The notes: generated from the letters alone by a model not told the origin. A DNA stretch of 16,714 bases from an uncultured archaeon (GCA_964577555.1 CAZNZM010000012.1:1-16714), one strand, 5' to 3'. Positions 1-16,714 are shown, numbered from the stretch's first letter. Numbers and translations: made by a program.

Positions 1-480
1 TTGTTTTTTTTGTGAGCCGAATTTTTTTTGTTTTTGTTGAGCCATATTTTGTCATTTTTTTTGAATCGTTTTTTTTAAGCCATTTTTTTGTTGTGTTTTA
101 GCCAATTTTTTTTGTCATTGTTTTTTTTTTAATTTTGAATTTTTGTTTTTTTTGTGAGCCGAATTTTTTTTGTTTTTGTTGAGCCATATTTTGTCATTTT
201 TTTTGAATCGTTTTTTTTAAGCCATTTTTTTGTTGTGTTTTAGCCAATTTTTTTTGTCATTGTTTTTTTTTTAATTTTGAATTTTTGTTTTTTTTGTGAG
301 CCGAATTTTTTTTTGTGTTTTTTTTGATTTATTTTATTTTTTTTTGTCTTTATTATTTTTGTTACAATTTGTTTTTTTTGTCAGATTTGAATATTTTTTT
401 TTAAGCGCTTTTTTTTGTTTTTTAAGGCTTTTTTTTAGTTTTTGGTTAGTTTTTGACTTGTTTTTTTGCTTTTATTTTCT
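1..480 (+). repeat. T-tract / AGCC-word intergenic repeat block A; T-rich strand is +
   Basis: Extreme T richness with very few C. Non-T bases cluster in short words (tgtgagccgaa, gttgagccata, aagcca, tagccaa, gtcattg, gaatcg) between T5-T10 runs. Contains the 142-bp tandem array. The distal part (316-480) shares strings with the reverse complement of block B, e.g. ttttttgatttatt at 320-333 equals the reverse complement of 11367-11380. Confidence 0.85.
11..315 (+). repeat. 142-bp tandem repeat: two identical copies (11-152, 153-294) plus a partial third (295-~315)
   Basis: tgtgagccga starts at 11, 153 and 295, a period of 142. By direct reading copies 1 and 2 are identical at every base. Bases 1-10 (ttgttttttt) equal the last 10 nt of the unit, so the array probably continues left of the window. 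Confidence 0.9.
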
Positions 481-520
481 TTAAAGTGCAGGTTATTTAA
501 ATATTTGTGAAGGGATTTGA

Positions 521-529
521 GTATATATT
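521..529 (+). promoter_or_regulatory. Candidate TATA box for the rpl21e operon (alternative: tatttaaatat at 494-504)
   Basis: gtatatatt is centred about 30 nt upstream of the ATG at 556, which would give a very short leader. Assigned by position only. Confidence 0.3.
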
Positions 530-555
530 CCGATTTCATTTGGTTAGTGGTTATT

Positions 556-876
556 ATGGCTAATAAAAAGGCAAAGGGTTCAAGGGCTAAAACAAGAGCA
601 TTAAGGAAAGGCCCAAAAGTCACGCCGAATAAATTGTTAATGGATTATCCAATAGGTTCGAAAGTTGATATTAAAATAGATTGGTCTGTCAAGGCTGGGC
701 GCCCTCACAGGAGATATCATGGGCTTACTGGGACAGTTATTGGCAAGCAAGGAAATTGTTTTGTTGTTGAAGTATATAAGTTGAATAAAAAAATGAATAT
801 AATTGTGGGTCCGGCGCATGTTAGTGCGTCGAAAGGCGTAAAGCCAAAAAAGGAGTCAAAAGTGGTGAAAGCATGA
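556..876 (+). CDS. rpl21e: 50S ribosomal protein L21e (eL21)
   Basis: ORF 517-876. The internal ATG at 556 gives MANKKAKGSRAKTRALRKGPK..., a basic N-terminus followed by RRYHGLTGTVIG, typical of eL21 at about 106 aa. The stop overlaps the next start (ATGA at 873-876). Confidence 0.9.
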   Translation: MANKKAKGSRAKTRALRKGPKVTPNKLLMDYPIGSKVDIKIDWSVKAGRPHRRYHGLTGTVIGKQGNCFVVEVYKLNKKMNIIVGPAHVSASKGVKPKKESKVVKA

Positions 877-1208
877 TAGGCAAGAAAGTCATTTCAACTA
901 AAAATATTCCTTTGTGCGAGGTAAAGGAAATTCTTTCGGAAAGGCAGAAGCAGGGCGATTTAACTTACGAACAACAACAAGCACTTGATTATTCAAAAAA
1001 ATTTTCTAAGCTTACTCCTTCTAAAGCCGAAAAACTTGCTGAAGAATTGAGGCAAATTGAAGGGCTTGACGAGGATTTCATAATAAAGGCATTGGATATC
1101 CTGCCAACCGACCTCGATACCGCTAGACTTATAGCGTACAAGTCTGGTGCAATAAATGAAGACAAACTTAAACAAGTAGTAGAACTTGCTTCAAAATACG
1201 CGAAGTAA
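873..1208 (+). CDS. rpoF: DNA-directed RNA polymerase subunit Rpo4 (RpoF)
   Basis: 111-aa helical, acidic protein. It sits immediately after rpl21e and before DUF655 and ksgA, which is the conserved archaeal order. GGTGA SD-like motif just upstream. Confidence 0.75.
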   Translation: MIGKKVISTKNIPLCEVKEILSERQKQGDLTYEQQQALDYSKKFSKLTPSKAEKLAEELRQIEGLDEDFIIKALDILPTDLDTARLIAYKSGAINEDKLKQVVELASKYAK

Positions 1209-1239
1209 GATTTTACATACATAAGCAGAGTGGATTATC

Positions 1240-1821
1240 ATGAAGGCGGAAGACAATGCTTTAGTTTTGGATTACTTGCCAAGAGGAAGGAGTTCTGATT
1301 ATAAAACCGAGCCTTTGGCACAACTTCTTGGCACTGAATTTTTTACTTTATTGGAAGTCGTTCCAAAAGTAGGCGTGGAACTTAAGCCTCTTGAGGAAGT
1401 TTATGTTGGCAAGGATGAGAGGCCTAAAATAGATTATATAAAGAAGAGAATAACCTATAAGGAATTGACTAATAATGCTTTGAACGAGCTTGAATCAGCC
1501 ATAAAAAAAATTGTTTTGATGCATGAACCAAGGTTTGTTCAGTTTTTCAATACTTCAAAGCCCATAACTTTGAAAAGGCATCAACTTGAACTTTTGCCCG
1601 GCATGGGAAAAAAACACATGTTTGATGTTCTGTCAGAGAGAGAAAAAAAGCCGTTTGAATCGTTTCAAGACATTAAGGAAAGGGTGCATGGGTTGCAAGA
1701 CCCTGCATTGTGCATAGTAAAGCGTGTCATGGAAGAACTTGAAGGGATTGATGTAAAATTTTACTTATTTGCCAGGCCGCCATTTCAAGAAAAACCTTTC
1801 TTTCCTAGAAAAAGATTTTGA
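1240..1821 (+). CDS. DUF655 / COG1491-type predicted nucleic-acid-binding protein (OB fold plus helix-hairpin-helix)
   Basis: 193 aa. The N-terminal ALVLDYLPRG and the C-terminal LELLPGMGKK HhH-like segment match my recollection of the family that sits between rpoF and ksgA in archaea. Confidence 0.7.
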   Translation: MKAEDNALVLDYLPRGRSSDYKTEPLAQLLGTEFFTLLEVVPKVGVELKPLEEVYVGKDERPKIDYIKKRITYKELTNNALNELESAIKKIVLMHEPRFVQFFNTSKPITLKRHQLELLPGMGKKHMFDVLSEREKKPFESFQDIKERVHGLQDPALCIVKRVMEELEGIDVKFYLFARPPFQEKPFFPRKRF

Positions 1822-1830
1822 TTTACGCTT

Positions 1831-2661
1831 ATGTCACTTTTTTCAAAGCTTCAAAGCCTTATGATTAATTACAGATTCAGGCCAAATGAAAAGCTCAGCC
1901 AAAATTTTTGCATTGACGAAAGGCTGTTAGTAAAAATGGTTGATTCAGCTTTTCTTAAGAAAAACGATGTAGTGCTTGAAATAGGTGCAGGAACAGGATT
2001 TTTAACCGAAAAATTGCTTGAAAAGTGCAAAGTAATAGCTGTTGAAAAAGACGATACTTTAGCTGATTTGCTTTCAAAAAATTTTTCAAACAACAAAAAT
2101 TTTGTTTTAGCTCATAACGATTTTTTGGATTTAAAAACTTTGAAATTCAACAAAATAGTGGCTTTGCCGCCTTATGCGTTATCTGATGACATAATGTTGA
2201 AAATTTTTTCATACCGCCCTGAAATTGTTGTGATTGTTTTTCAACGCGAATTTGTAAGAAAGCTTGCGGCATTTCCAGGTTTAAAGGAATATTCTTATCT
2301 TTCAGTGCTGACGAATCTTATTTTTGATTCAAATGTTTTAATAGAAAACATATCGCCAATGTCTTTTTTTCCAAAACCAAGTTCATATTCTTCTCTTCTT
2401 TGCCTTGTTTTAAGAAAAAAACAACCTGAAGTAAAAAATTTTTTTGATTTCATATTTTTCTTGAAGCAAATATTCAGATTCAAAAACAAGTCTCTCAGGA
2501 ATGCAATTAATAATGCGTATCCAGAATTGCATAAAAAATTCAAAATAGATCCTAATAAAATTGATGAATTGCTTGGTTCCTGTTATTACGCTTCGAAAAA
2601 AGTCAATTTGCTTGAACCCGAGGAATTTCTGGATTTGTTCAGGAAAATTTTTCAAGAATGA
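1831..2661 (+). CDS. ksgA: 16S rRNA (adenine1518/1519-N6)-dimethyltransferase KsgA/Dim1
   Basis: 276 aa. SAM motif I VLEIGAGTGFLT, motif IV-like VALPPYALS, and conserved gene context. Confidence 0.9.
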   Translation: MSLFSKLQSLMINYRFRPNEKLSQNFCIDERLLVKMVDSAFLKKNDVVLEIGAGTGFLTEKLLEKCKVIAVEKDDTLADLLSKNFSNNKNFVLAHNDFLDLKTLKFNKIVALPPYALSDDIMLKIFSYRPEIVVIVFQREFVRKLAAFPGLKEYSYLSVLTNLIFDSNVLIENISPMSFFPKPSSYSSLLCLVLRKKQPEVKNFFDFIFFLKQIFRFKNKSLRNAINNAYPELHKKFKIDPNKIDELLGSCYYASKKVNLLEPEEFLDLFRKIFQE

Positions 2662-4171
2662 TTTTTTGGAACTCTATTATGTCTGCAGAAGTTGCAAATT
2701 TATAAGCCGCTTCTAGTTTTGTTTCGTTTTCCGCAAAAATTTCCATTAAAGTGTCTCCTTTTTGGACTTTTGAGCCAACTTCAACGTTCAAAAGTATGCC
2801 TGCTTTTTTGTTTGCAGGTGCACCAGAAAGTCGCGCAACTTTATTAAGCAACTCGACGTTTATTACGCTTATTTCGCCTGTGCATTCCGAAAGAACCTTT
2901 TTTGAAAACTTTGCAGGAGTTATTTGTGTTGAAGATAAAATGCTTCCTCCTTGTGCCAAAATAATTTCCTTCATTTTTTCAAGTGCTTTGCCGGATTTCA
3001 ATATTTCCAAAGCTTTTTCGTATCCCTTGCCTTTTGGAACATCACCAACCAGTTCAAGCAATGCTCCTGAAAGTTCAACGGATTTTTGCGCCAAGTTGTC
3101 GAATATTTTGCCTTCAAGTATTTCAAGTGCGTGTTTTGCTTCCAATGCAGGGCCGAATGCTTTTCCACAAGGCTCAGAACCGTTTGTCAAAAGCACTTCT
3201 ACGTTGATTCCTAATTGTCTTCCAACTTCCACGAATTTCAGAGCCATTGCTTCGGCCTTTTCCCGTGTTTTTACTTTTGCAAATTGTCCTATTGGTATGT
3301 CTACTACAACATACTTGGCTCCAACACTTGCTTTTTTTGCCATTACACTTGCAATTACTTGTCCTTCAGGGTCAAGTGAAAGCGGGTATTCTATTTTGAT
3401 TATCTTGTCGTCTGCAGGTGCAAGTTCCACTGCGCCTCCCCAAGCAATGCAACCACCTGTTTTTTCAACAATTGATTTGATTTCTTCCAAAGAAAGAGAT
3501 ACTTTTGCGATTACTTCCATTGCGTCGGCAGTGCCTGCTGATGAAGTTATAGACCTTGAAGAGGTTTTTGGTATTGCATAGCCGGCAGCAGCAATTATTG
3601 GGACTATTATCATTGTGGCTCTTCCGTTCAAGCCCCCTATTGAATGCTTGTCAACAATTTTGGAATTTGAGAGTTTGAGAGTTTTGCCATTGTCTATGAG
3701 TGATTTTGTCATATGCACTATTTCATCAATGTCAAAGCCATGCACATAAACCCCACTTACAAATGCTGTTGCTTCTATTTCGCTTAAACTGTTGTCAGCT
3801 ATGTCATTTACTATTTGCTTGATTTCTTCAAAAGACAATTTTTTTCCGTCCAGTTTCTTTTTAATGAATTCCGTGCTTTTGGGTTTTTGAGCTGCTTTGA
3901 CTTCAACATATTGTTCGTCTTTTATTTCAAGTATTTTTTGAAGGTCCTTAAAAATTCCTATTTCGTTTTCTTTTATTATTGAATCCGTTACATCAACAAC
4001 CGCTTTGACGATTTTATTAGTATCAGGCGAAAAAATTTCAATCCTGTCGTTTGGAAAAACTCCTAATTCCTTTGCATCAATTATATTAAGTATTGCTATC
4101 AATTTGCCTGTTTTGAGGTCAACTGTTCTGGCTTTCAGTTTTTGCTTATAACCGTTTTTTGCTTCATTCAT
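2639..4171 (-). CDS. deoA: AMP phosphorylase (thymidine phosphorylase family, archaeal long form)
   Basis: 510 aa. DKHSIGG and TSSRSITSSAGTAD motifs of the pyrimidine-nucleoside phosphorylase fold. The ~90-aa N-terminal extension and ~500-aa length are characteristic of archaeal AMP phosphorylase. Confidence 0.85.
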   Translation of the reverse strand: MNEAKNGYKQKLKARTVDLKTGKLIAILNIIDAKELGVFPNDRIEIFSPDTNKIVKAVVDVTDSIIKENEIGIFKDLQKILEIKDEQYVEVKAAQKPKSTEFIKKKLDGKKLSFEEIKQIVNDIADNSLSEIEATAFVSGVYVHGFDIDEIVHMTKSLIDNGKTLKLSNSKIVDKHSIGGLNGRATMIIVPIIAAAGYAIPKTSSRSITSSAGTADAMEVIAKVSLSLEEIKSIVEKTGGCIAWGGAVELAPADDKIIKIEYPLSLDPEGQVIASVMAKKASVGAKYVVVDIPIGQFAKVKTREKAEAMALKFVEVGRQLGINVEVLLTNGSEPCGKAFGPALEAKHALEILEGKIFDNLAQKSVELSGALLELVGDVPKGKGYEKALEILKSGKALEKMKEIILAQGGSILSSTQITPAKFSKKVLSECTGEISVINVELLNKVARLSGAPANKKAGILLNVEVGSKVQKGDTLMEIFAENETKLEAAYKFATSADIIEFQKIILEKFS

Positions 4172-4193
4172 TGTAAAAATTAAAACCCCTAAT

Positions 4194-4208
4194 TATATAA
4201 ATCTTCGC
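4194..4208 (-). promoter_or_regulatory. BRE plus TATA box of deoA; leaderless geometry
   Basis: The minus strand reads gcgaaga-tttatata. The TATA (4194-4201) is centred about 26 nt upstream of the ATG at 4171, with a purine-rich BRE-like gcgaaga immediately upstream. Confidence 0.5.
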
Positions 4209-4245
4209 GCTTTGCAATCAAAACATATTTTTTTTCAAGTTTTTT

Positions 4246-4992
4246 TTAGGTGTTTTGTCCAAGTTTTGCGCACATTTCCATCGCAGCTTTTTTAATGTCT
4301 TGTGCTTCGTAGAGCCCTCTGCCTACAATTGCGTGCCAATTATTGCCCGCGGCTTTTCCTGAATCTGTTATGCTTCCGCCTTGTGCAACTAAGCCAGGCG
4401 AGTAAAGAATCGGTTTTATTCCAAAAGATTCCAAGAATTTTTTATAATGCAATATTTTGTCAGGTTTATTTCCAGGCACTACAAATTCTAAAACCCTGTT
4501 TTCTATTGCTAATTTATAAATTTCTTCTGGGGCAGTGTCTTTCAAAAACCCGCCTTCGCTGGAAAGGTATGCTTTGTGTGTCATTTCCCCCCCTACAATG
4601 ACTTTCAATCCTTGGTTGAATGCTGATTTTATCCATTCTTTTTCTGTTTCAGGTCCGGCTTGAGGAAAAAGTATTACCGAATCGACTTTTGCTTTTGCAC
4701 AAACTTTTGCAAATTTTTCACCAGTGAAAGGAATGTCAGTGCCTGCTTTTTGATGGTCATAAATTATTGGTTTGTCTGTGTGTTTTCTGCATGCTTTTAC
4801 AACTTTGTCCAAGCCATATGACAATGCCAATTCAAAACCTATTTTGTATGCGCCTATTCCGAAAACATCTTTTGTTTCCTTGACAAGTATTTCAAATTCT
4901 TTTAAATTGTCAAAGTCGCACGATGGCACTATGCTTTTCGGGATTTTTATTGTTGGTTCTGGTTTGTTTGTCATTATTTTCCTTCCTGCCAT
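4246..4992 (-). CDS. pyrF: Orotidine 5'-phosphate decarboxylase family protein (PyrF); alternative start at 4974
   Basis: 248 aa. Has SCDFD, YKIGFEL and IVGRG elements of the ODCase TIM barrel and is the last gene of the pyr operon. The ATG at 4974 forms TAATG with the pyrE stop. The central motif is [11 protein letters not shown] rather than the classic DxKxxD spacing. Confidence 0.75.
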
Positions 4993-5609
4993 TTTATCGG
5001 ATCCTTGAAATAATCTTTTGTCATTTTGTAAATTTCAGGTTCTATTTTTTTATGCTTTCGCAATATGTCCAATAGTTCCGAAATAGTGAATACTGAATGC
5101 AAATGCAAACCGCTTTTAAGCAATTCTTCGGAGCCGCCTTGTTGTCTGTCAATAAGAACCAAAATATCCTTTACTTTTAGTCCGACTTTTTCCAACGGAG
5201 AAATGGCTTCAAATTTGCTTGCTCCGTTTGTTATTATATCGTCAATCACTAACACGGTTTCGCCTTCAGAAAATTTTCCTTCAACCAAAGCTTTTGTTCC
5301 GTATTCCTTTACTTCTTTGCGCGGAAAAACCATGCGCCAATTCCTTTCAAGGCTTACTGCGGTTGCTATTGCAATTGCAGCAAATGGTATTCCGGCTATT
5401 GCATCAAATTTTAAATTGTCAGCCTTCAACGCCAATTGGTTTCCAACTTTTTTCAATACTGCAGGGTATGAAACTAAAATCCTCAAATCTATATAAATTG
5501 GGCTTTTCAACCCTGATTTTAAAGTAAATAAACCGAATTTTACAGCGCCTATTTCCTGCAAGTCCAATGCTAGTTGTTCCCTTTCATCCATACACATTTC
5601 CTCTTGCAA
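4974..5609 (-). CDS. pyrE: Orotate phosphoribosyltransferase; possible later starts at 5597 or 5591
   Basis: 211 aa. [19 protein letters not shown] plus the PRPP-binding motif [13 protein letters not shown]. Confidence 0.9.
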
Positions 5610-6852
5610 TTACATGTTCAATGCAACCTTTTAATTCCATTCCGTCAAAAGGGCTGTATTTTGCTTTTGTAAACAATCTTGCATTTTGGATTAATGTATT
5701 TTTATTCAAATCTATTATTATTAAATCCGCATCAAATCCTTTTCTAATAAAACCTTTGTTTTGCAAATTGAATATTTTTGCAGGGTTTTCCGACACCACT
5801 TTGATCATGTTTTGCAATGAAATTTTTTTTTCCACAACTTCGTTTAACAGCAATGGAACCATTGTTTCTATTCCTGGTATTCCTGAAGGGCATTGCCAGT
5901 AATCCAATTGTTTTTCTTCAAATGTGTGTGGTGCATGGTCTGTTGCAACAACATCGATCAAGCCGTTTTTCAAGGCAGAGTAAAGCGCGATTCTGTGTTC
6001 AGGACCTTTGATTGAAGGGTTGCATTTTATTAAATTTCCAAGTGTTTTGTAATCATTTGAATCCAAAAACAGATGATTTGGCGAAACTTCAAAGGTTATG
6101 TGGTTGCCAAATCTTAATTTTTTTCCTTGAAGAATCAGTTTCAACCCGCCTTTGCTGGAAACGTGTGCAAAATGCAAATGCCCGCCTGTTTCATTTTGAA
6201 TATTCAATAGTGTCCTTATTGCCGAAACTTCGGCTTTTTCGTTTCTGATTAAGACATGTGTTTCCGGCCAATTTTCATTTTTAAAAATTTTTTCATTTTC
6301 GGTGACAACTTTGTCGTCTTCTGCATGCGCTACAACCACAAACCCTTTTTTCCTAGAAAGCAAAAACAATTCCCTGATTGCATCAGGGTTGTTCATTAAA
6401 AGGTTTCCAGTAGTATGCCCAAAATACAATTTGACCGCGTGCAGACCTTTTGCCTTTTCCATTTCATGCAAATTGTTTTCAGTTGCACCCATGTAAAGTT
6501 CAAATGAAACCAAAGATTCTTCTTCTACAATCCTTCTTTTTTTTTCAAAAATTGTGGCGCTTATAATTGGCGGGTCGTTGTTAGGCATGTCCATTACAGT
6601 TGTAACGCCTCCATGTAGTGCCGCTAATGAGCCAGAACACCAGTCCTCTTTATATTCAAAGCCAGGAGTTCTGAAATGTACGTGGCAATCAATTGCGCCC
6701 GGCAAAATTATTTTACCTTTACAATCAATTTCATGTTCTGCATCGAATTCTTTTGCTCCAATTTCCGCAATTTTTCCGTTTGCGCATAAAATATTCGTTT
6801 TAACAAGTTTACCTTCAATGTACGCTTTTCCGTTTTTGAGTGCAAGTTTCAT
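5584..6852 (-). CDS. pyrC: Dihydroorotase
   Basis: 422 aa. Amidohydrolase metal motif [10 protein letters not shown], then VATDHAPH. The start overlaps the pyrK stop by 4 nt. Confidence 0.9.
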
Positions 6853-7712
6853 TCTTCACGCCACCTAAAGTATTCTTTTAATTCAACCCTTCTGCCGCTT
6901 TTAAGGTAAGCAATTTTTCCAAACTCTTTCATACTGCTTAATTCTTTTCCGTTGAATACTGGGCCGTCTCTGCATACTAATTTGTCATCAATTGCGCATT
7001 CACCACAAACACCTATTCCGCATTTCATGTACCGTTCAATCGAAGCTTCAAACACAATTTTGTGTTTTGCTGCTATTTCCATTGCACGCAGTATCATTGC
7101 TTCTGGCCCGCAAGCATAAACAATGTCGTGTTTTTCCTTTTCCAGCAATTTGTCAAGTACAATGACGTTAAAACCTTTTTCCCCATAAGAACCATCATCA
7201 GTAGTAACATATACTTTTCCGAATTTTTTCAATTCTTTTTCAAAAATTATTCTTTCTTTTGACCTTCCGCCAAGTATTATTTTTGTCTTGCATTTGTTTT
7301 CATAAAGCTTTTTTGCAAGCATTATTATTGAATCTATGCCGACCCCGCCGGCAATAATCACGGCTTTTTTAATGCCTTTTGTAGTGAATGGTTTTCCATA
7401 TGGGCCTCTTATCCAAAATTTTTTGCCTTCTTTCATTTCGAGCATTTTTTTTGTTGCAATCCCCTTTGCTTCTATATTAATAGCAATTTTTTTTCCATTA
7501 GGTATTAATGCTAATGGTTTTTCATCCACGCCAGGCAACCAAACCATTACAAATTGGCCTGGTTCGAAATCCATTTCAAGTCCTAGAAAAAAAGTTTTAT
7601 TGCCTGGAAATTCTTCCCTGACTTTTTCAATTATTGCAGGCCTAGTTTTTGTATCATATTTCCAGCATTTGCAATAGTCTACTTCTTTTTTTTCAATAGT
7701 TTTCATGCGCAA
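6849..7712 (-). CDS. pyrK: Dihydroorotate dehydrogenase (class 1B) electron-transfer subunit
   Basis: 287 aa. FAD/NAD-binding ferredoxin-reductase fold and a C-terminal 2Fe-2S cluster motif CGIGVCGECA. Adjacent to pyrD. Confidence 0.85.
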   Translation of the reverse strand: MRMKTIEKKEVDYCKCWKYDTKTRPAIIEKVREEFPGNKTFFLGLEMDFEPGQFVMVWLPGVDEKPLALIPNGKKIAINIEAKGIATKKMLEMKEGKKFWIRGPYGKPFTTKGIKKAVIIAGGVGIDSIIMLAKKLYENKCKTKIILGGRSKERIIFEKELKKFGKVYVTTDDGSYGEKGFNVIVLDKLLEKEKHDIVYACGPEAMILRAMEIAAKHKIVFEASIERYMKCGIGVCGECAIDDKLVCRDGPVFNGKELSSMKEFGKIAYLKSGRRVELKEYFRWREE

Positions 7713-8613
7713 TACCCTTCAATTGTTCAATTTTTGTAAAACCATTTTCTTTCATCCATTCCATAATTTCTTTGCAAACTTTTTTGAAAACTCTTGGTCC
7801 ATAAAGCCAAACTGCACTGCCTATTCCGCATGCAGTTGCACCAGCCATTATGTATTCAAGAGCGTCTTTCCCTGAAGTTATGCCGCCTTCCCCTATTATT
7901 GGTATTTCTACTTTTTCATAAAGGTCATAAGTAATCTTCAAATTTATAGGTTTCAAGGCTGGTCCACTTATCCCGCCTTTTTTGAATGCAAGAATAGGTT
8001 TTTGTGCATCAACATCTATCAACATTCCAGGCATTGTGTTGCATGCACAAAGCGCATCCGCGCCAGCTTCCTCGCATGCAATTCCTATTTCTGTCGGCGA
8101 CGTGACTGCAGGAGTCAACTTGGCTATAATCGGTATTTTTCCAACCACGTCCTTGACGCTTGAAACTATTTTTGCAGAAATATTTGGGTCTTGGGCGAAT
8201 TGCATGTCGTGCCATTCGGTATTAGGACAGGAAATATCAAGTTCAATAAACTCTGGTTTTTTTTCAGCCACGTATTGTGCAACTTCTGCGAATTCTTCCC
8301 ATTTTGTCCCATAAATACTTGCAATCAATGGAGTATTGGTTCTTTTTAATTCCTTTAACTCTTCAAATTCCTCGTCATAATTTTTATAGCCAGGAGTAGG
8401 CAAGCCAACAGCATTCAAAAGCCCGTGCTCCCATTCAATTACAGTCGGATTTTTATGTCCAAACCTTTCACGTGGCCCAATGCTTTTCATGGTGACCGCG
8501 CCAGCTCCTTCCAAAGCCACTCTTATGAGCTGTGCCGCATTTACTCCGAGGATGCCGGAAGCAAGCCGTGTAGGGTTTTGCATTTCAATGCCGCACAAAG
8601 TAGTCTTCAGCAT
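7693..8613 (-). CDS. pyrD: Dihydroorotate dehydrogenase catalytic subunit (class 1B)
   Basis: 306 aa. NASGILG-like start (RLASGILG), AVTMKSIG, ISCPN, and GGISGPALKP with IIGEGGI near the C-terminus. Confidence 0.9.
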   Translation of the reverse strand: MLKTTLCGIEMQNPTRLASGILGVNAAQLIRVALEGAGAVTMKSIGPRERFGHKNPTVIEWEHGLLNAVGLPTPGYKNYDEEFEELKELKRTNTPLIASIYGTKWEEFAEVAQYVAEKKPEFIELDISCPNTEWHDMQFAQDPNISAKIVSSVKDVVGKIPIIAKLTPAVTSPTEIGIACEEAGADALCACNTMPGMLIDVDAQKPILAFKKGGISGPALKPINLKITYDLYEKVEIPIIGEGGITSGKDALEYIMAGATACGIGSAVWLYGPRVFKKVCKEIMEWMKENGFTKIEQLKGIAHENY

Positions 8614-10061
<1,448 letters not shown>

Positions 10062-10229
10062 TTAATAAAAACCTATTGTCTGCCAAAACAAAATCATTGT
10101 GCTTTAAAACAACCTATAAAATAAGTGCAAAAAACAATTGCTGAAAAAACAAAAATTTACATAAAAAATTTCTACAAAACATGCAAATCAATAAATTTAA
10201 TAACAATTATTAAAATAATAATAAAAGTT

Positions 10230-10919
10230 ATGATAGATTATTCAGAGATTTTAAATTCTTGTTTTTCCTGGTTTAAAGACAATAAATCACGAAAATATTT
10301 TTTGATTACTTTTGCCGGCTTGTTTTTGATAAATATTGTCTTTCAAGCAATCGGTTTAGGGGCAAGTTATAATTTCGGAACTTCCAACTTAGGTTTAAGT
10401 AATTATTCTTCTTATCAAACCTTTGAAAATTTTTTTACCAGCATTTTCACCGCCTTTGCATTTTTTATTGCATTGGCATTGATTTTTGTCATAATCCAAT
10501 TTTTTGTTGTAAAGTATTTTGAGGGACGCATTATAAAGAACGCACTGGAATTTAAAGGCATAAAAGTTCCCGACTTCAATTTTAATAAATTCTTAAAATT
10601 TTGTATGCTGCAAATATGGGTTTTTTTCGTTGCTGTTGCAAGTTGGCATAATAAAATATTTTTTGTAATTTTCCTGTTGGCTGTTCTTCTTTCAGTAATT
10701 GGCGTGGCTTTGACAATTTTTATGAAAGGTTTTTTATTTATAGGAACTATAGTTTTGTTTTTGGCAAGTGTAATTTTTTTTGTTTATTTTATTGTTGTAC
10801 TTTATAATTTTTTGAGGCTTGCACTTTCAAATGTACATTTTATTAGCAACGATGTTTCAATAACCAATACCACTAAAGAAATTTGGAATTTAACAAGCGG
10901 CAAGGTTTGTCACTTTTGA
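10230..10919 (+). CDS. Multi-pass membrane protein, N-terminal part (unknown function)
   Basis: ORF 10125-10919 starts at a GTG. The ATG at 10230 (MIDYSEILNSCFSWFK...) is more plausible. Several long hydrophobic F/I/L/V segments. Ends in ...KEIWNLTSGKVCHF* just before a hydrophobic continuation in another frame. Confidence 0.65.
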   Translation: MIDYSEILNSCFSWFKDNKSRKYFLITFAGLFLINIVFQAIGLGASYNFGTSNLGLSNYSSYQTFENFFTSIFTAFAFFIALALIFVIIQFFVVKYFEGRIIKNALEFKGIKVPDFNFNKFLKFCMLQIWVFFVAVASWHNKIFFVIFLLAVLLSVIGVALTIFMKGFLFIGTIVLFLASVIFFVYFIVVLYNFLRLALSNVHFISNDVSITNTTKEIWNLTSGKVCHF

Positions 10920-10924
10920 TTTTG

Positions 10925-11242
10925 ATGGTGATTTTTTTTGCAATAGCGGTTGTTTTAGGAATTGTTTATTTTTTTATTAATTTTATTTTTTCAATTTTAT
11001 TATTGGTTTTTTATATTATTCCCGGGTTAAGTTTAATAGTTTCAACAATATTTTCAACTGCTCTGGATAGCGCTTACACAGCTTTATTAATGTTCGTGGT
11101 AAATTTTGGATTGGTGGAGTTTTATTTGAAATTTGCAAAAGAAGTCAACACGGTTGTAAATTCTGGGAATCTGGCTTATACTTCACAGCAAACCGCCAAA
11201 AAATTCAAATACGCTGAAAAAAACCAATTGAAAAAAAACTAA
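10925..11242 (+). CDS. Membrane protein, C-terminal part or a separate small membrane protein (frame -1 relative to the previous ORF)
   Basis: ORF 10883-11242 opens with TTG. The first ATG is at 10925 (MVIFFAIAVVLGIVYFF...). Same hydrophobic composition as the upstream ORF, and the two overlap across 10883-10919. Confidence 0.55.
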   Translation: MVIFFAIAVVLGIVYFFINFIFSILLLVFYIIPGLSLIVSTIFSTALDSAYTALLMFVVNFGLVEFYLKFAKEVNTVVNSGNLAYTSQQTAKKFKYAEKNQLKKN

Positions 11243-11280
11243 TCTTTGTTTTTGCAAAGGCTAAATGATTTATTTTAGCT

Positions 11281-11560
11281 AAAAACCCTATCTGCAAAAA
11301 AACCTGAAAAAATAAAAAATCAATTCAAAAAAACTTTTCACAAAATCAAGACAAAAAACAAAAAATAATAAATCAAAAAATTCTCAAAACGAACAAAAAA
11401 ATTCAAAAATGGCTCGCCAAAAAAAACAAAAAAACAAAAAAATAAAAACAACTAAAAAAATGGCTACATAAAAAAAGCTTGAAAAAAAATAGACAAAAAA
11501 ACAAAATGGCAAATTTGCTTTTGAAAAACCAATTCAAATTAAAATCGCCTAAAAAACGCA
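11281..11560 (-). repeat. T-tract / AGCC-word repeat block B, inverted orientation (T-rich strand is -)
   Basis: A-rich on +. The reverse complement reads ...ggcgagccatttttgaatttttt..., ...tatgtagccattttttt..., ...ttttttaggcgatttt.... The 16-mer ttttttaggcgatttt (reverse complement of 11541-11556) is identical to 13609-13624 in block C. The 14-mer ttttttgatttatt (reverse complement of 11367-11380) is identical to 320-333 in block A. Confidence 0.8.
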
Positions 11561-11578
11561 GCAACAAGAAAAGCAAGC

Positions 11579-11587
11579 TTTTTTATT
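11579..11587 (+). promoter_or_regulatory. Candidate TATA-like element for prs; leaderless geometry
   Basis: ttttttatt is centred 24-27 nt upstream of the tandem ATGATG at 11607-11612. No SD motif. Confidence 0.3.
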
Positions 11588-11606
11588 CAACAAATGCATC
11601 AAATTT

Positions 11607-12497
11607 ATGATGATTATTTTTAGCTTTGGAAACTCTCAAAACCTTGCAAAAAAAATAGCAAAAACAACAATGGCAAAACTTGGAAAAATAGAATACAATA
11701 CATTTCCAGACGAAGAACTTTATATAAGGTTCATGAATAAGGTTGATGGCGAAAAAGTTGTTATTGTAGAAAGCATGTTTCCAAACCCAAACTTGTCTTT
11801 GTTAAAACTTTATTTTGCTGGGAGAACTGCAAAAAGCCTTGGCGCGAAAAAAGTTATTGCTGTAATACCTTATCTTGGATTCATGCGACAGGACAAAAGA
11901 TTCAAGGATGGAGAATGCATATCAAGCAGGGAAATGGCTCATTTGATTAATTCTTCCTTTGATTCAATAATAACAATAGACCCACATTTGCATAGGATAA
12001 AAAACATGACTGACATATTTCACATTGAAAGAAAAAAACTTTCGGCAAATTCATTGATTGCAGAATATATAAAAAAGCATTTTAATCAAAAAACTGCAAT
12101 AATAGCCGGTCCTGACATTGAAAGTAGCCAATGGGCAAAAGCTATTGCTGATTCAATTCATTACGATTCCGTGATATTTCTCAAAGAAAGAAAAGGTCCA
12201 AGGAATGTTAAAATAAACGTTACAATGGAAATGAATTGGAATAAAAAGGACATAATAATAATTGACGATATTGTAAGTTCTGGACACACTATGATTGAAG
12301 CAATAAAAGAAATAAAAAAAAGGAATCCGAATTCAGTGAATTGCATTTGTGTACATGGGCTTTTTGTAGAAGGCGCCTATGAAAAAATCTTGAAAACCGG
12401 AATAAACAAAATTGTCAGTACAAATACAATTGAACACAAAAGCAATAAAATAGATGTTTCAGGAATAATAGCTGAAGAGATTTTGAAATACGATTAA
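11607..12497 (+). CDS. prs: Ribose-phosphate pyrophosphokinase (PRPP synthetase)
   Basis: 296 aa. IPYLGFMRQDKRF loop, TIDPHLH, and the PRPP-binding motif IIIIDDIVSSGHTM. Confidence 0.9.
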   Translation: MMIIFSFGNSQNLAKKIAKTTMAKLGKIEYNTFPDEELYIRFMNKVDGEKVVIVESMFPNPNLSLLKLYFAGRTAKSLGAKKVIAVIPYLGFMRQDKRFKDGECISSREMAHLINSSFDSIITIDPHLHRIKNMTDIFHIERKKLSANSLIAEYIKKHFNQKTAIIAGPDIESSQWAKAIADSIHYDSVIFLKERKGPRNVKINVTMEMNWNKKDIIIIDDIVSSGHTMIEAIKEIKKRNPNSVNCICVHGLFVEGAYEKILKTGINKIVSTNTIEHKSNKIDVSGIIAEEILKYD

Positions 12498-12600
12498 AAA
12501 ATAAAATCAGTTAAAAAAAATTTCGTTTAAACAAAAAACAGCGCAATTTATAATCAAATCATATTTTCTAATCTGTGGTTTTGCAAAAATTTTTTTATTA

Positions 12601-12615
12601 GGAAAGGTTATAAAT
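12601..12615 (+). promoter_or_regulatory. BRE-like purine run plus TATA box for the methyltransferase gene; leaderless geometry
   Basis: ggaaagg followed by ttataaat (12608-12615), centred about 26 nt upstream of the ATG at 12638. Confidence 0.45.
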
Positions 12616-12637
12616 TCTCTTTTGTTAAAAATCTTGG

Positions 12638-13264
12638 ATGCGTGAAGAAATCATAAAAAAATATGTTGGGAAGTATTCTCTTGACGTAGTAGATAATCAT
12701 AACTCTTTAGAACTTTATGAAGGATTTTTCAAAAACATGGGTTTAAAAAAAACAATAAAAGATATGATAACCGAAAAAATAGAGGGCAAGGGAAAAGTAA
12801 AGGTAATGGATATTGGTTCTGGCGACTGTGGTTTTTTGCACGATTTGAAAAAAATTTTTGGCGAAAAAATTGAAACAATTGGCATTGATTTGCTTGTACC
12901 TGAAAAAAAACCAGATAAAATTATTCCTGGCGATGCGTTAGAAATTGATTTTCCGCAAAATATTGACTTTGTTTTTTCTTTCAGGGCGCTTCATGAAATA
13001 GGCGAACCTGAAAAAATTGTCAAGAAAGTTTATAACTGCTTGGCAAAAAACGGAAAAGCGTTTCTTTCGTTCAGAACGGCTGACCTTTATTTTGGCGGGA
13101 ATGGCATAGGGGAAATAGGTGAAAAAGAAATCAAGCAATTGCAAAAAATGGTTAAAAACGGCAGGCTTGGCGGATTCAATGTTAAAGGTTTTGAAGTAAT
13201 TGTCGCAAACGATAAAGAAAGCATTGTTGCAGGCGTAAATATTTTTCTTGAAAAGGATAATTGA
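12638..13264 (+). CDS. Class I SAM-dependent methyltransferase, substrate unknown
   Basis: 208 aa. Motif I VMDIGSGDCGF and a post-I acidic residue (IGIDL). The FSFRALHEI and KNGKAFLSF segments fit the Rossmann methyltransferase fold. Confidence 0.75.
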   Translation: MREEIIKKYVGKYSLDVVDNHNSLELYEGFFKNMGLKKTIKDMITEKIEGKGKVKVMDIGSGDCGFLHDLKKIFGEKIETIGIDLLVPEKKPDKIIPGDALEIDFPQNIDFVFSFRALHEIGEPEKIVKKVYNCLAKNGKAFLSFRTADLYFGGNGIGEIGEKEIKQLQKMVKNGRLGGFNVKGFEVIVANDKESIVAGVNIFLEKDN

Positions 13265-13295
13265 ATTGATGTTGAAAATAGTTCAATGATAAAAG

Positions 13296-13304
13296 TTTTT
13301 TTTT
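13296..13304 (+). terminator. Oligo-T (T9) archaeal-type terminator after the methyltransferase gene
   Basis: A T9 run 32 nt downstream of the stop at 13262-13264. Archaeal RNAP terminates at oligo-dT tracts. Confidence 0.5.
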
Positions 13305-13477
13305 AGATGAAGATTTTTCAACCGCTGAAAATACGCTTTCTTGCCAATCATTTTTTAGGCGCGTTTATTTTTTGAATTCAAATTTGTTGTTAGCTTTTTT
13401 GACAGCCATTTTTTTGTCATTTTTTTTGTGAATTTTTTTGTGAGCCGGTTTTTTTTGTGTTTTTTTGTTTTTGGTTT

Positions 13478-13607
13478 GTTTTTGTTGAGCCATCTTTTGT
13501 CATTTTTTTTGAATCGTTTTTTTTAAGCCATTTTTTTGTTGTGTTTTAGCCAATTTTTTTTGTCATTGTTTTTTTTAATTTTGAATTTTGTTTTTTTTGT
13601 GAGTCGG
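13478..13607 (+). repeat. Dispersed copy of the 142-bp unit of block A (matches 30-162 and 172-304)
   Basis: Aligned by eye over about 130 nt. Differences seen: ccatatttt vs ccatctttt, T10 vs T8, gaatttttg vs gaattttg, gagccga vs gagtcgg. All other positions are identical. Confidence 0.85.
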
Positions 13608-13663
13608 TTTTTTTAGGCGATTTTTTTTCATGATTTTTTTTGAACGTTTTTTTAATTTTTTTT

Positions 13664-13705
13664 GTGAGCCGTTTTTTTTTAGACAATTTTTGTTTTGTTT
13701 TTTTT
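13664..13705 (+). repeat. 42-bp module shared with block D (16563-16606)
   Basis: gtgagccg-T9-agacaatttttgttttgtttttttt here, versus gtgagccg-T10-ggacaatttttgttttgttttttttt in D. Confidence 0.85.
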
Positions 13706-13869
13706 ATAAAATATTTTGCCAAGTATGTTGTTTCAAATTTAAGGATTATTTTTTTAAATTATTGGTAATAAAAAAGGTTTTTTTTGCAATGATATTGGTT
13801 TAAATTCTTTTTATGGGGCGTTCTATTATTAATAATTGTTTAATTAATTTATTTTTGGAAGGGGTTACG

Positions 13870-14997
13870 ATGAAAAATGTAGTGCAAAAAGCTATAAAAC
13901 TTGCAAAAGATGAATCAGAAAAGGCAAAGCCTAAGTCAAAAAAAGTTGTTGAGGATGACGAATCGCTTGTTGAAATGCTGGAGAGCAGTAAAGCCAGAAT
14001 AGCTGTTGTAGGTGTAGGCGGAAGCGGTTGTAATACCATGCAAAGAATGTCTGAAGTAGGAATTATAGGTGCAACCACATTCGCGATAAATACGGATGCT
14101 CAGGATTTGCTTAAGGTAAAGGCTGAGAAAAAAATTCTTATTGGAAAGAAACTTACAAGAGGACTCGGAGCTGGTTCTAATCCTTCAATAGGCGAGGCTT
14201 CGGCTCAGGAATCTCTTGAAGACCTTTCCGAGTCATTGCGCAATTTTGATTTAGTTTTCATAACTTGCGGTTTAGGCGGTGGCACTGGCACTGGCGCAGC
14301 TCCGGTAATAGCTGAACTTGTAAAAAAGAGCAAGGCATTGACAATAGGCGTTGTTACTTTGCCTTTTACTGTTGAAGGAAAAAAGAGAGCTGAAAATGCA
14401 ATGTATGGCCTTTCTAATCTAAGGCAACATGCTGATACAATAATTGTTATTCCAAATGATAAAATACTTGAAATTGCTCCTGATTTGCCGTTAAATGCTG
14501 CTTTCAAGGTTGCTGACGAAGTCCTTACAAATGCTGTGAAAGGAATAACTGAATTAATTACCAAACCAGGTTTGATAAATCTTGATTTTGCAGATTTGAG
14601 AACAATTTTAGAGAAAGGCGGAGCCGCAATGATAGGGTTAGGAGAAAGCGGAACCCAAAGCGGTCCAAGCGAAGCAAGAGCACTTGAAGCAGTTGAGAAT
14701 GCTTTGACTTCGCCATTGCTTGACGTGGATATTTCAAATGCAAATAGAGCTCTTATCAATGTCATTGGAGGTTCTGACATGACATTGAGAGAAGCTGAGT
14801 TGATTGTTGAAGCAGTTGCTGCAAAAATAAATTCTCATGCCCACATAATTTGGGGGGCCATGATTGACGATACAATTCCGAAAAACCAGATTCAAGCAAT
14901 GGTAGTTATTGCCGGCGGAAAATTCCCTTTTTTGGATGAGAATGGTGATATTCCAAAAGGCGGCAATATAGACCTTGGAATACAATTCACTGATTGA
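13870..14997 (+). CDS. ftsZ: Cell division GTPase FtsZ
   Basis: ORF 13813-14997. The ATG at 13870 (MKNVVQKAIKLAK...) is preceded by ggaagggg. Tubulin signature GLGGGTGTGAAPVIA, plus NTDAQ and VVTLPF. Confidence 0.92.
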   Translation: MKNVVQKAIKLAKDESEKAKPKSKKVVEDDESLVEMLESSKARIAVVGVGGSGCNTMQRMSEVGIIGATTFAINTDAQDLLKVKAEKKILIGKKLTRGLGAGSNPSIGEASAQESLEDLSESLRNFDLVFITCGLGGGTGTGAAPVIAELVKKSKALTIGVVTLPFTVEGKKRAENAMYGLSNLRQHADTIIVIPNDKILEIAPDLPLNAAFKVADEVLTNAVKGITELITKPGLINLDFADLRTILEKGGAAMIGLGESGTQSGPSEARALEAVENALTSPLLDVDISNANRALINVIGGSDMTLREAELIVEAVAAKINSHAHIIWGAMIDDTIPKNQIQAMVVIAGGKFPFLDENGDIPKGGNIDLGIQFTD

Positions 14998-15034
14998 ATT
15001 CAAAGGGTTTTGGCAGACAAACCAATAAAATAAA

Positions 15035-15042
15035 TTTTTTTT
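15035..15042 (+). terminator. Oligo-T (T8) run after ftsZ
   Basis: A T8 run 38 nt downstream of the ftsZ stop. May attenuate or terminate before secE. Confidence 0.3.
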
Positions 15043-15113
15043 GGAGACTTTTTAGGAGTTACTTTGTCCAGCAGAACCTTTTTATTGTTTTCTTAGGACA
15101 CTATGATTTGTTT

Positions 15114-15296
15114 ATGATTGGCAAAGAGAAAATTAACGAGTTTATAAACTCCAGCATTAGAATATTCAATGTTTCGCGAAAGCCAACAGGAAACGAATAC
15201 AAAATAATGTTGAAAGTAATTGGCATTGGAATTATTTTTATTGGTTTGATTGGTTTTATTGTAAGGCTTGTTTTGGAAGGCTTTTTTAAAATATGA
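15114..15296 (+). CDS. secE: Preprotein translocase subunit SecE (Sec61 gamma)
   Basis: The internal ATG of ORF 14994-15296 gives a 60-aa protein with a single C-terminal TM segment (VIGIGIIFIGLIGFIVRLV). The position between ftsZ and spt5 is conserved in archaea. Confidence 0.75.
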   Translation: MIGKEKINEFINSSIRIFNVSRKPTGNEYKIMLKVIGIGIIFIGLIGFIVRLVLEGFFKI

Positions 15297-15429
15297 TTTT
15301 TAAAGATAATTTTTCTTTTAAAATCGGCTTTCAGTTGTGTTTTTAAACATTTTCAAACGCTTGAATTTAAGTTAACGGCTATTTTTTTAGCTGATTATTT
15401 TTTTATTTGGAAAATGAAGGAGCATTAAA

Positions 15430-15870
15430 ATGATTTTTACCGTAAGAACAACAGTTGGACAGGAAAGTCTTGTGGTGGATATACTTTCAAGCAAAATAAA
15501 AATGGATAATTTGAATATTTATTCAATTTCTGTCATTCCAGGGCTTAAAGGTTATGTACTTATAGAAGCAGAAGATGAGGTCACCTTGCGAAGGGGAATT
15601 TCAAATACATCCCACATAAAGGGAAAAGGCATTGTTGGAGGTCAAGTAAAGATTGAAGAACTCAGCGGCTTGCTTGAAGCAAAGCCACTGATGAAAAGCA
15701 TAAAAGAAGGCATGAAAGTGGAACTTATTGCAGGTCCATTTAAAGGTTCTAAAGCAAAGGTTTTAAGGGTAAATGATGCGAAAGAGGAAGTTACGGTGGA
15801 GCTTTTGGATGAAGCAGTAAAAATTCCAGTGACAATTCATGCTGAACATATTAGAATAATCAAAGAGTAA
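15430..15870 (+). CDS. spt5: Transcription elongation factor Spt5 (archaeal NusG)
   Basis: 146 aa. NGN domain start IFTVRTTVGQE and KOW motif ELIAGPFKGSKAKVLRV. GGAG SD motif 7 nt upstream. Confidence 0.9.
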   Translation: MIFTVRTTVGQESLVVDILSSKIKMDNLNIYSISVIPGLKGYVLIEAEDEVTLRRGISNTSHIKGKGIVGGQVKIEELSGLLEAKPLMKSIKEGMKVELIAGPFKGSKAKVLRVNDAKEEVTVELLDEAVKIPVTIHAEHIRIIKE

Positions 15871-15888
15871 AGGAGTTGATTTTTTTTT

Positions 15889-16362
15889 ATGGCTGAAGTT
15901 AAATTGATGGTTGAAGGCGGAAAAGCAACTGCAGGACCCCCGTTAGGTCCGTCATTAGCGCCGCTTGGAGTTAACATAGGACAAATAGTTTCACAAATAA
16001 ACGAAAAAACAAAAGGCTATGCTGGAATGAAAGTGCCAGTAGTTGTAGAAGTTGACAAATCAAAAAATGTTACTATAAATGTTGGTTCTCCTCCGACTAG
16101 CGCATTGATATTGAAAGAAGCTAAAGCGTCAAAAGGCGGGGCTAATCAAAAAACAGATGCAGTTGGAAATCTCACGATGCAGCAAGTCAAAAAGTTGGCT
16201 GAAATGAAAATGAATTCTTTGTCTTCTTCAAAAATTTATTCAGCAGTAAGGGAAATAGTAGGCACTTGCAATTCAATGGGGATAACAATTGAAGGCAAAC
16301 GCGCAAAAGAAATACAAAAAGAAATCAAGTCAGGCAATTGGGATCATTTGTTAAAAAATTGA
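15889..16362 (+). CDS. rpl11: 50S ribosomal protein L11 (uL11)
   Basis: 157 aa. GGKATAGPPLGPSLAPLGVN signature. AGGAG upstream. Confidence 0.92.
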   Translation: MAEVKLMVEGGKATAGPPLGPSLAPLGVNIGQIVSQINEKTKGYAGMKVPVVVEVDKSKNVTINVGSPPTSALILKEAKASKGGANQKTDAVGNLTMQQVKKLAEMKMNSLSSSKIYSAVREIVGTCNSMGITIEGKRAKEIQKEIKSGNWDHLLKN

Positions 16363-16370
16363 TTTTTTTT
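16363..16370 (+). terminator. Oligo-T (T8) run immediately after the rpl11 stop
   Basis: tga followed directly by tttttttt. This is the first T-tract of repeat block D. Confidence 0.45.
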
Positions 16371-16714
16371 AAATTTTTCTTGTATTTTTAGATTTGTTTT
16401 TCTGGAATTTATATTTTTTTACTTGTTTTTTTTGAAAATGAATTATTTTTTTTAGTTATTTTTTTGTTTTTCTTTTATGTTTCTTTGGCTAGCCTTTTTT
16501 TGTCGTATTTTTTTAGAAATTTGTTTGTTTTTTTGTGTGTTGTTTTTTTGTTGTTTGTTTTGGTGAGCCGTTTTTTTTTTGGACAATTTTTGTTTTGTTT
16601 TTTTTTGGTGGGTTTTGTTTTTTTTTGCTAATTTGTTTTTTTTTGTGAGCCGTTTTTTTGAATTCTTTTTTTGTCAAGCTGTTTTTTTGGCGTATTTTTT
16701 TGTTTTTTTAGTTG
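16363..16714 (+). repeat. T-tract / AGCC-word repeat block D; T-rich strand is +; runs off the right edge
   Basis: Words ttggctagcc, tggtgagccg, tgtgagccg, gtcaagctg and ggcgta between T6-T10 runs. 16521-16565 contains only G and T. 16563-16606 matches 13664-13705. Confidence 0.8.

Follow-up and report, generated by a model that had tools for sequence, protein, structure and literature searches.

Strand-polarised, hypervariable oligo-T arrays between genes of a low-GC Diapherotrites archaeon and their possible role as one-way transcription barriers

In AT-rich eukaryotes such as yeast, Plasmodium and Dictyostelium, poly(dA:dT) tracts are homopolymer-rich and strand-asymmetric, lie near promoters and gene ends and vary by slippage, features in which the arrays described here resemble them; they exclude nucleosomes and have broad length distributions. 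Minisatellites, or variable-number tandem repeats (VNTRs), and satellite DNA are made of head-to-tail units of at least tens of base pairs, and are polymorphic between close strains. Archaeal transcription, in turn, terminates at U-tracts, that is, at runs of T4-5 or longer on the non-template strand, for which a hairpin is unnecessary; T5 is the minimal terminator, and successive oligo-dT signals occur naturally, as in the four consecutive signals behind a histone gene of Pyrococcus furiosus (PMC2253867). In Methanococcus maripaludis, both the efficiency of termination and the binding of aCPSF1 rise with the number of U4-tracts, the median efficiency being about 55% even at more than two tracts (PMC8716108). 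Here, we describe a family of intergenic arrays found in a stretch of 16,714 nucleotides from an uncultured archaeon (GCA_964577555.1, CAZNZM010000012.1:1-16714; hereafter, the window), in which two of these known kinds, archaeal U-tract terminators and concertedly evolving minisatellites, are combined. The arrays consist of T7-T9 runs between short GC-containing words, are non-coding, measure 350-870 bp and stand between some of the genes. A search of the literature returned no account of such repeats in Diapherotrites/Iainarchaeota.

The source genome, with a GC content of 34%, belongs to the Diapherotrites/Iainarchaeota (DPANN), and the closest FtsZ proteins carry the label Candidatus Diapherotrites. 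The window contains the genes for the ribosomal protein L21e, RpoF, a DUF655 protein, KsgA and AMP phosphorylase, a pyrF-E-C-K-D-I-B operon, and the genes for phosphoribosyl pyrophosphate (PRPP) synthetase (prs), a methyltransferase, FtsZ, SecE, Spt5/NusG and the ribosomal protein L11. A contig from JGI metagenome 3300037501 (L001), positions 1-10826 of which equal window positions 5889-16714 at 100% identity, adds 9.6 kb rightwards, and the DNA surveyed from this genome (window plus L001) amounts to about 26 kb.

An array family at four intergenic loci

A first-pass annotation, made by a model from the sequence of the window, had pointed to four intergenic oligo-T blocks, all of which are present at the positions it gave. 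Array A (1-480) is T-rich on the + strand and lies 5' of the L21e-rpoF-DUF655-ksgA unit; array B (11258-11560) is T-rich on the minus strand and lies immediately 5' of prs; array C (13294-13710), T-rich on the + strand, extends from the methyltransferase gene towards ftsZ; and array D (16363-16714), also T-rich on the + strand, begins at the L11 stop codon and runs 114 bp past the end of the window (to about position 10940 of L001). On the T-rich strand, A (counted over 1-500) contains 65% T and 6.8% C, with 31 runs of T5 or longer; B (11243-11606, minus) 55.5% T and 8% C, with 20 runs; C (13265-13812) 57% T and 7.8% C, with 29 runs; and D (16363-16828, in extended coordinates) 66% T and 5.8% C, with 30 runs. 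The four blocks together hold 110 such runs, of modal length T7-T8, at a density of 58.6 per kb; the remainder of the 26 kb has 9.7 per kb on the + strand and 6.6 on the minus strand, and ordinary spacers there measure 30-300 bp and carry 0-7 T-runs. When tokenised, the blocks resolve into runs of T4-T10 alternating with words of 1-11 nt, most of which start with G. In two species, the distribution of run lengths is bimodal: one mode lies at 7-9, and no run is longer than 10; this cap, and the setting of the runs in a repeated word grammar, distinguish the arrays from eukaryotic poly(dA:dT). The runs are spaced at 11-16 bp, with Fourier peaks at 13-16 bp.

The recurrence of AGCC-type words, claimed in the first-pass annotation, is well over chance: GTGAGCCG occurs seven times against 0.12 expected (a count of seven was reached in 0 of 200 shuffles), and the T-rich strand carries 17 occurrences of AG[CT]C[GA], compared with 0.85 when shuffles preserve the T-runs. 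That one grammar extends across the four blocks was borne out for the alternation of T-runs and words, but for B the homology of the words is weak. Word sharing is significant between A and C (score reached in 0/1000 shuffles) and between C and D (2/1000), marginal between A and D (64/1000), and not significant between B and A (191/1000) or B and D (253/1000). AGCCAT sites are located at 40-45, 78-83, 13404-13409, 13488-13493 and 13526-13531 and, on the minus strand, at 11409-11414 and 11460-11465; the reverse complement, ATGGCT, is the start-codon context of L21e (556) and L11 (15889). A palindrome, GGCTAGCC, is present in array D at 16487-16494.

Tandem Repeats Finder (TRF) detected in array A a 142-bp unit in 2.2 copies, 100% identical, at 1-313 on the + strand (units at 1-142 and 143-284, and a partial third at 285-313). 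The unit contains seven runs of T7 or longer and 7.7% C, in agreement with the counts originally given for it (seven runs and about 8% C). A copy of this unit in array C (13429-13607) differs by one 20-bp insertion, three changes in T-run length and a few substitutions, and the differences in run length noticed between copies at first reading (T10/T8, T5/T4 and T9/T10) are indeed present. Arrays C and D have a module of about 50 bp in common (13656-13705 in C), and D carries an internal 30-bp duplicate. Outside units of 142 bp, or of 143 bp in a relative (see below), the arrays are a mosaic and not a regular tandem, and a half-unit periodicity (about 70 bp) inside the 142-bp unit was not above that of token-order shuffles.

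Several known classes of repeats were considered and set aside. Clustered regularly interspaced short palindromic repeats (CRISPR) were rejected, as the repeat searches confirmed that the blocks have no fixed repeat/spacer periodicity or constant repeat and no cas domains were found in the neighbouring genes. A miniature inverted-repeat transposable element (MITE) or insertion sequence was rejected as well: the repeat and domain searches bore out the lack of terminal inverted repeats and of a transposase, the only long inverted matches being those of block B with the other blocks, and the GTGAGCCG words that flank the unit in C are the start of the next unit and not terminal repeats. A scan for sigma-70 promoters and hairpin terminators showed no enrichment, the model used being bacterial and not applicable to an archaeon.

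The first-pass annotation had also allowed for misassembled low-complexity sequence. The blocks are not an assembly artefact, because independent assemblies agree: contigs of three other samples are 100% identical to the window over their overlaps; besides JGI 3300037501, pieces of the window are found in JGI 3300043267 and SRR12686701 at 100% identity; and all copies in the window's own strain are identical. Every independent assembly breaks inside block A, and leftward extension failed, with all four L21e contigs of the strain (4/4) ending there; the tandem number of 2.2 copies is, for that reason, the value of the window contig alone.

Relatives, an inversion and the turnover of the arrays

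The order pyr operon, methyltransferase, prs, ftsZ-secE-nusG-L11, L1-L10-L12 and Lon is conserved in many Diapherotrites contigs. Relatives at 35-54% GC (L115 and L117-L121) have short spacers of 100-200 bp at these genes and no arrays. Arrays were found in two other low-GC lineages: a congener (L126/L128, from JGI 3300010938; 84-86% in DNA alignment to the window, FtsZ 99% identical) and a sister lineage (L116, L122 and L131; FtsZ 87% identical, GC 32%). The congener has an array of 871 bp with 46 runs of T5 or longer between prs(-) and ftsZ(+), an orthologue of array A in the divergent spacer of 657 bp that separates L21e from an exonuclease gene, and a third array 3' of L11; those of the sister lineage lie at prs|TBP-like, hyp324|ftsZ, L44e|Lon and exo|GT4. 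In each of the three lineages, the T-rich strand shows a 6-20 fold enrichment of AG[CT]C[GA], with AGTCG as the core word in the sister lineage versus AGCCG/AGCCA in the genus of the window, that is, a C-to-T difference on the T-rich strand. It is well supported that the arrays form a lineage-specific family of low-GC Diapherotrites/Iainarchaeota. A scan of GTDB, JGI metagenomes and IMG/VR for GTGAGCCG with its T-flanks gave single chance hits only, in unrelated bacteria and phages, with no multi-copy match and the window contig itself unmatched; the organism is apparently absent from both of the large collections. In the congener (L126 9187-10000), GGCTC/GAGCC inverted pairs surround a T9 run, and weak hairpins are possible there.

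Block B had been singled out as the discriminating case, its T-rich strand being the minus strand with + genes on either side. The comparison with the congener shows that it does not discriminate, as it is a flipped piece of an array between prs and ftsZ. By blastn, window 3778-11257 corresponds to L126 1-7468 and window 13495-16642 to L126 9643-12854, both in the same orientation, and between them window 13303-11307 is the reversed counterpart of L126 7474-9484; array B aligns reversed to L126 9187-9484, and the breakpoints fall at 11258-11306 and at 13304-13494, the latter inside an array. Since prs(-) faces ftsZ(+) in all the other relatives, the segment at about 11258-13303, with array B, prs and the methyltransferase gene, is well supported as an inversion derived in the window. 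B is the prs-proximal piece of the ancestral prs|ftsZ array, flipped along with prs and the methyltransferase gene, and C the ftsZ-proximal remainder, assignments for which the support is equally good. Before the inversion, all the arrays had the same T-rich strand. The blocks do delimit gene blocks, as originally noticed, and they coincide with rearrangement breakpoints too.

The arrays of the window and of L126 are nearly unalignable and align through their T-runs only, in surrounding DNA of 84-86% identity; conservation is far higher in the last 135 bp or so 5' of the ftsZ start and the last 50 bp or so 5' of the prs start than in the arrays. The 142-bp unit has its word content in common with the L126 array (7 of 300 shuffles reached the score) but not its word order (161 of 300). 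L126 has a tandem unit of its own, of 143 bp, in 1.9 copies with 86% matches, and the collinearity of the 142- and 143-bp units was not above chance. Among the congener strains L128, L129 and L130, the flanking genes show 0.3% mismatches, versus 3% in array A plus 117 gap columns out of 521 (22%), the gaps including a replaced internal segment. Moreover, array A of L130 has a module of about 150 bp in common with array D of L126, which belongs to the same species.

In both species, modules are exchanged between arrays at different loci, and paralogous arrays are more alike than orthologous ones, having modules in common that are missing from the orthologues. The arrays grow, shrink and are homogenised by tandem duplication, by insertions and deletions in and around the runs, and by the transfer of modules between loci, and it is well supported, from the alignments, that they are hypervariable minisatellites in concerted evolution. 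A recombining minisatellite spread by gene conversion, one of the three hypotheses of the first-pass annotation, has thus gained strong support from the comparison of strains and species. Head-to-tail units of at least tens of base pairs and polymorphism between close strains, here those of the congener, are both found; as in minisatellites and satellite DNA, there are tandem units (142 and 143 bp), paralogues resemble one another more than orthologues do, close strains vary in length and modules, and assemblers break. Unlike minisatellites, however, the arrays lack a fixed short period, being mosaics of T-runs and words, are dispersed in single-copy spacers and have one polarity.

A one-way transcription barrier weighed against other readings

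Within each lineage, the arrays are T-rich on the sense strand of ftsZ and L21e regardless of the flanking genes, the inversion being the sole exception, and we infer that the polarity is inherited with the chromosome strand and does not depend on the neighbouring gene. Behind minus-strand genes, ordinary spacers have their T-runs on the minus strand, as normal terminators do. Across 11 arrays in three lineages, several of which are in divergent spacers, a co-directional gene ends just 5' of four (C and D of the window, D of L126 and the L44e|Lon array of L122), whereas B, the A and prs|ftsZ arrays of the congener and three arrays of the sister lineage do not occupy such a position. Five of the 11 stand directly 5' of a gene on the T-rich strand, and two are flanked by two genes that are both antisense to it. 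C and D begin 0-30 nt from the stop codons of + strand genes, directly downstream of which they had been placed at first reading.

Each T-run would serve as a U-tract, the canonical signal for termination in archaea, either intrinsically or with the help of aCPSF1/FttA, so that RNA polymerase moving along the T-rich strand would encounter 20-45 signals in succession. Single tracts are probably leaky, since T5-T8 runs are tolerated inside genes here, and sense-strand runs of T5 or longer are not depleted from coding sequence (88 observed vs 60 expected). An array would then act as a cumulative one-way stop zone, which may shield the downstream L21e, ftsZ and L1 operons from incoming transcription and, elsewhere, may stop antisense read-through. 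The arrays share with the U-tract terminators of M. maripaludis and P. furiosus runs of T5 or longer on the non-template strand, no hairpin, multiple tracts of the kind that raise efficiency and, for C and D, a position right after co-directional stop codons (PMC8716108, PMC2253867). Terminators of that type, however, contain a single tract or a few, spread over about 30-50 nt, and the arrays 20-45 tracts over 350-870 bp; the arrays are, in addition, duplicated modules, hypervariable, and mostly not behind a co-directional gene. The suggestion of a unidirectional barrier made in the first-pass annotation therefore stands in part: with canonical archaeal U-tract signals in every unit it is physically plausible, but the polarity does not follow the flanking genes. 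Judged from sequence, the chances appear evenly balanced that this hypervariable, strand-polarised oligo-T minisatellite family acts as a cumulative one-way termination barrier; an insulator function would be the most likely of the several readings, and a purely neutral satellite is its main rival.

Several points weigh against an insulator. Termination at the arrays is itself something that we infer; their length is far beyond the expected need of termination; a co-directional gene ends upstream in just four of the 11, and two are antisense to both neighbours. Orientation cannot confirm selection, as a T-rich block is one-directional by definition. The persistence of the T7-9 mode despite turnover fits a constraint on the runs, but the mode could also have been inherited from a duplicated ancestral module without being selected. 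Finally, relatives of higher GC, with the same gene order, manage with spacers of 100-200 bp.

A more far-reaching version, that the arrays are a selected and hitherto undescribed class of element organising archaeal genomes, 'terminator satellites' in which 20-45 weak, strand-polarised U-tracts would add up to a near-absolute one-way barrier, kept functional by concerted evolution through the turnover of their sequence, is doubtful; it would include, perhaps, a coordination of transcription with replication, and hotspots of inversion and insertion that reshape gene order. If the arrays are functional, a compact DPANN genome gives 2-5% of a region to long, polar insulators of many weak terminators, and the family would be a model for cumulative, factor-assisted archaeal termination and an example of prokaryotic satellite-like DNA under concerted evolution. 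Even if neutral, the arrays break metagenome assemblies, draw spurious calls of Lys-rich proteins and mark rearrangement breakpoints.

It is possible, though we would not call it likely, that the arrays are a functionless, neutral or selfish satellite, produced by AT-biased mutation, slippage and unequal or ectopic recombination in a low-GC lineage under weak selection. Their confinement to low-GC relatives at 31-35% GC, with none in those at 38-54%, the extreme turnover with unconserved word order, and the C-to-T change of the core word in the sister lineage, which has the direction of the skew, are all as expected of such DNA. Polarity could then reflect common descent plus a cost of inverted copies: it ignores gene orientation, and the sole inverted pair (B and C) comes from an inversion that split one array. 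The base composition of the genes points the same way, as at 4-fold sites of the coding sequences of the window and L001 the + strand has an excess of T over A in both gene orientations (Fisher p = 1.4e-7; TA4 is +0.08 in + genes and -0.165 on the sense strand of - genes), with no strand component in GC4 skew. However, DPANN genomes are compact and ordinary spacers here measure 30-300 bp; the bimodal run lengths, with their sharp cap at 10, differ from the decay expected of neutral slippage; and an array at the prs|ftsZ position persists in three lineages. Low GC alone is, furthermore, insufficient, because L119, at 35% GC, has no arrays.

Arrays that bind chromatin or another protein are an unlikely alternative to the insulator; here, stiff poly(dA:dT) tracts would keep histones or nucleoid proteins out of the regions 5' of the L21e, ftsZ, prs and L1 promoters, or a dedicated protein would read the AGCC/GGCT words. 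Arrays do stop about 75-135 bp short of the L21e, prs and ftsZ start codons, beside conserved promoter regions, and the 6-20 fold enrichment of AG[CT]C[GA] in three lineages, the palindrome GGCTAGCC in D and the GGCTC/GAGCC inverted pairs of L126 are what sites for a protein might look like. Yet a conserved binding site is improbable for words that differ between lineages (GAGCCG versus AGTCG) and whose order and spacing are unconserved, and the hypothesis of a reader of AGCC words, also put forward at first reading, is weakened by the scrambled order between congeners and the AGTCG of the sister lineage. Nor does the exclusion of nucleosomes need a single strand polarity, and the available DNA revealed neither a histone nor a candidate for a binding protein. 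Phased A-tract curved DNA was rejected, the runs being spaced at 11-16 bp and not at 10-11 bp; because they lack the 10.5-bp phasing, no intrinsic planar bend is expected.

A replication-linked element, whose T-rich strand would mark a replication strand (for instance, as a pyrimidine-rich lagging-strand template on which priming is favoured, or as a polar barrier of the fork or R-loop type), is very unlikely. It would account for arrays on one chromosome strand per lineage whatever the gene orientation, with a recent inversion as the sole exception, and the array strand shows the 4-fold T>A excess in the window, in L128 and in L117. A link to replication is suggestive at most, however, because the skew is about zero in the array-bearing L122 and L131 and present in L117, which has no arrays. 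An archaeal origin was rejected: no orc1/cdc6 gene was found in the 26 kb, and the repeat search of the blocks and their flanks revealed, in keeping with the first-pass annotation, no inverted repeats like the origin recognition box (ORB).

It is hardly credible that Lys-rich peptides or an RNA are encoded on the A-rich strand, or that the blocks are artefacts of assembly. In favour are the Lys-rich open reading frames (ORFs) of 42-58 amino acids that gene callers place on that strand, the occurrence of ATGGCT as the start context of L21e and L11, and the breaking of contigs in block A. Against this, the changes in T-run length between copies would shift the frame, the sequence is identical in four samples, and related arrays occur in many independent assemblies. 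Coding was rejected on the period-3 power (0.2-0.8, against 7-22 in known genes) and on stop-free runs of the A-rich strand that match shuffles, for which reasons the Lys-rich calls are spurious and the blocks non-coding, as first described; a protein search with the A-rich strand of the 142-bp unit, translated in three frames, returned nothing at E<=1. A structured RNA was rejected with folding z-scores of +1.4 and +1.0; Rfam 15 and tRNA scans of the window were empty (Rfam even at E<=1), as was Rfam for the arrays at related loci, and the absence of RNA-like structure noticed before is upheld.

Promoter-proximal regions and neighbouring genes

Between array A and the L21e start codon lies a conserved promoter-proximal region (481-555, + strand), outside the array, with a TATA-like TTATTTAAATA (493-503) and a TATATAT (522-528); L128, L129 and L130 are nearly identical over this region but not over the neighbouring array. 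The promoter and leader of ftsZ (13735-13869, + strand) contain a TTTAAATT box (13799-13806); most columns between about 13735 and the ftsZ ATG are identical to L126, whereas the array 5' of there is essentially unalignable. The true start of ftsZ is position 13870 (375 amino acids) and not the ATG at 13813 (a call of 394 amino acids), because L116 has no ATG at the latter position and the region is a conserved non-coding leader.

A short divergent spacer rich in T-tracts (10035-10229, minus strand), from pyrB to a membrane-protein gene, has T4-T6 runs and represents a weak form of the array grammar, repeat family D16 connecting it with block B. The membrane-protein gene itself consists of two ORFs in different frames (10230-10919 and 10925-11242), which correspond to a single protein of 337 amino acids in L126 (55% and 48% identity). 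The frame break adjoins a T8 run (10932-10939), and is either a real frameshift, making a pseudogene, or an error in homopolymer length common to the assemblies.

Beyond array D, a minus-strand ORF of 60 amino acids is followed by the L1-L10-L12 genes. The ORF (L001 10958-11140, equivalent to window 16846-17028), located between array D and L1, has an N-terminus rich in Lys, an acidic C-terminus (MATRNKTGKKGKK...EDEELLFERP), no significant Pfam match, a sub-threshold NETI hit (E 0.043) and a weak period-3 signal (1.9), and its antisense strand resembles the array grammar; a small basic protein and a spurious call are both possible. The L1 gene has a conserved leader (GAGCCG...ACCAATTCGTTGGTAGG; L001 11296-11350 and L119 13525-13590), not detected by Rfam, which probably corresponds to the mRNA site of L1 autoregulation described in methanogens; the hexamer GAGCCG is common to this leader and to the array words. 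The L11 protein has a Lys/Glu-rich C-terminal extension in L117 (264 amino acids; 12160-12954) and in L119 (about 320 amino acids; ~12525-13486), and here has 157 amino acids, with array D behind its gene. The L11|L1 spacer is a hotspot of insertion, with PIN/MazE-type genes in L115 and a pair of PIN-domain genes in L120. At the other end, in the region that corresponds to DNA left of the window, the congener L128 has a 5S rRNA gene (15934-16050) beside a TBP gene, a few kb 5' of L21e, and a 5S-like sequence was recognised by eye at the equivalent spot of the sister lineage (L131, ~3640-3760).

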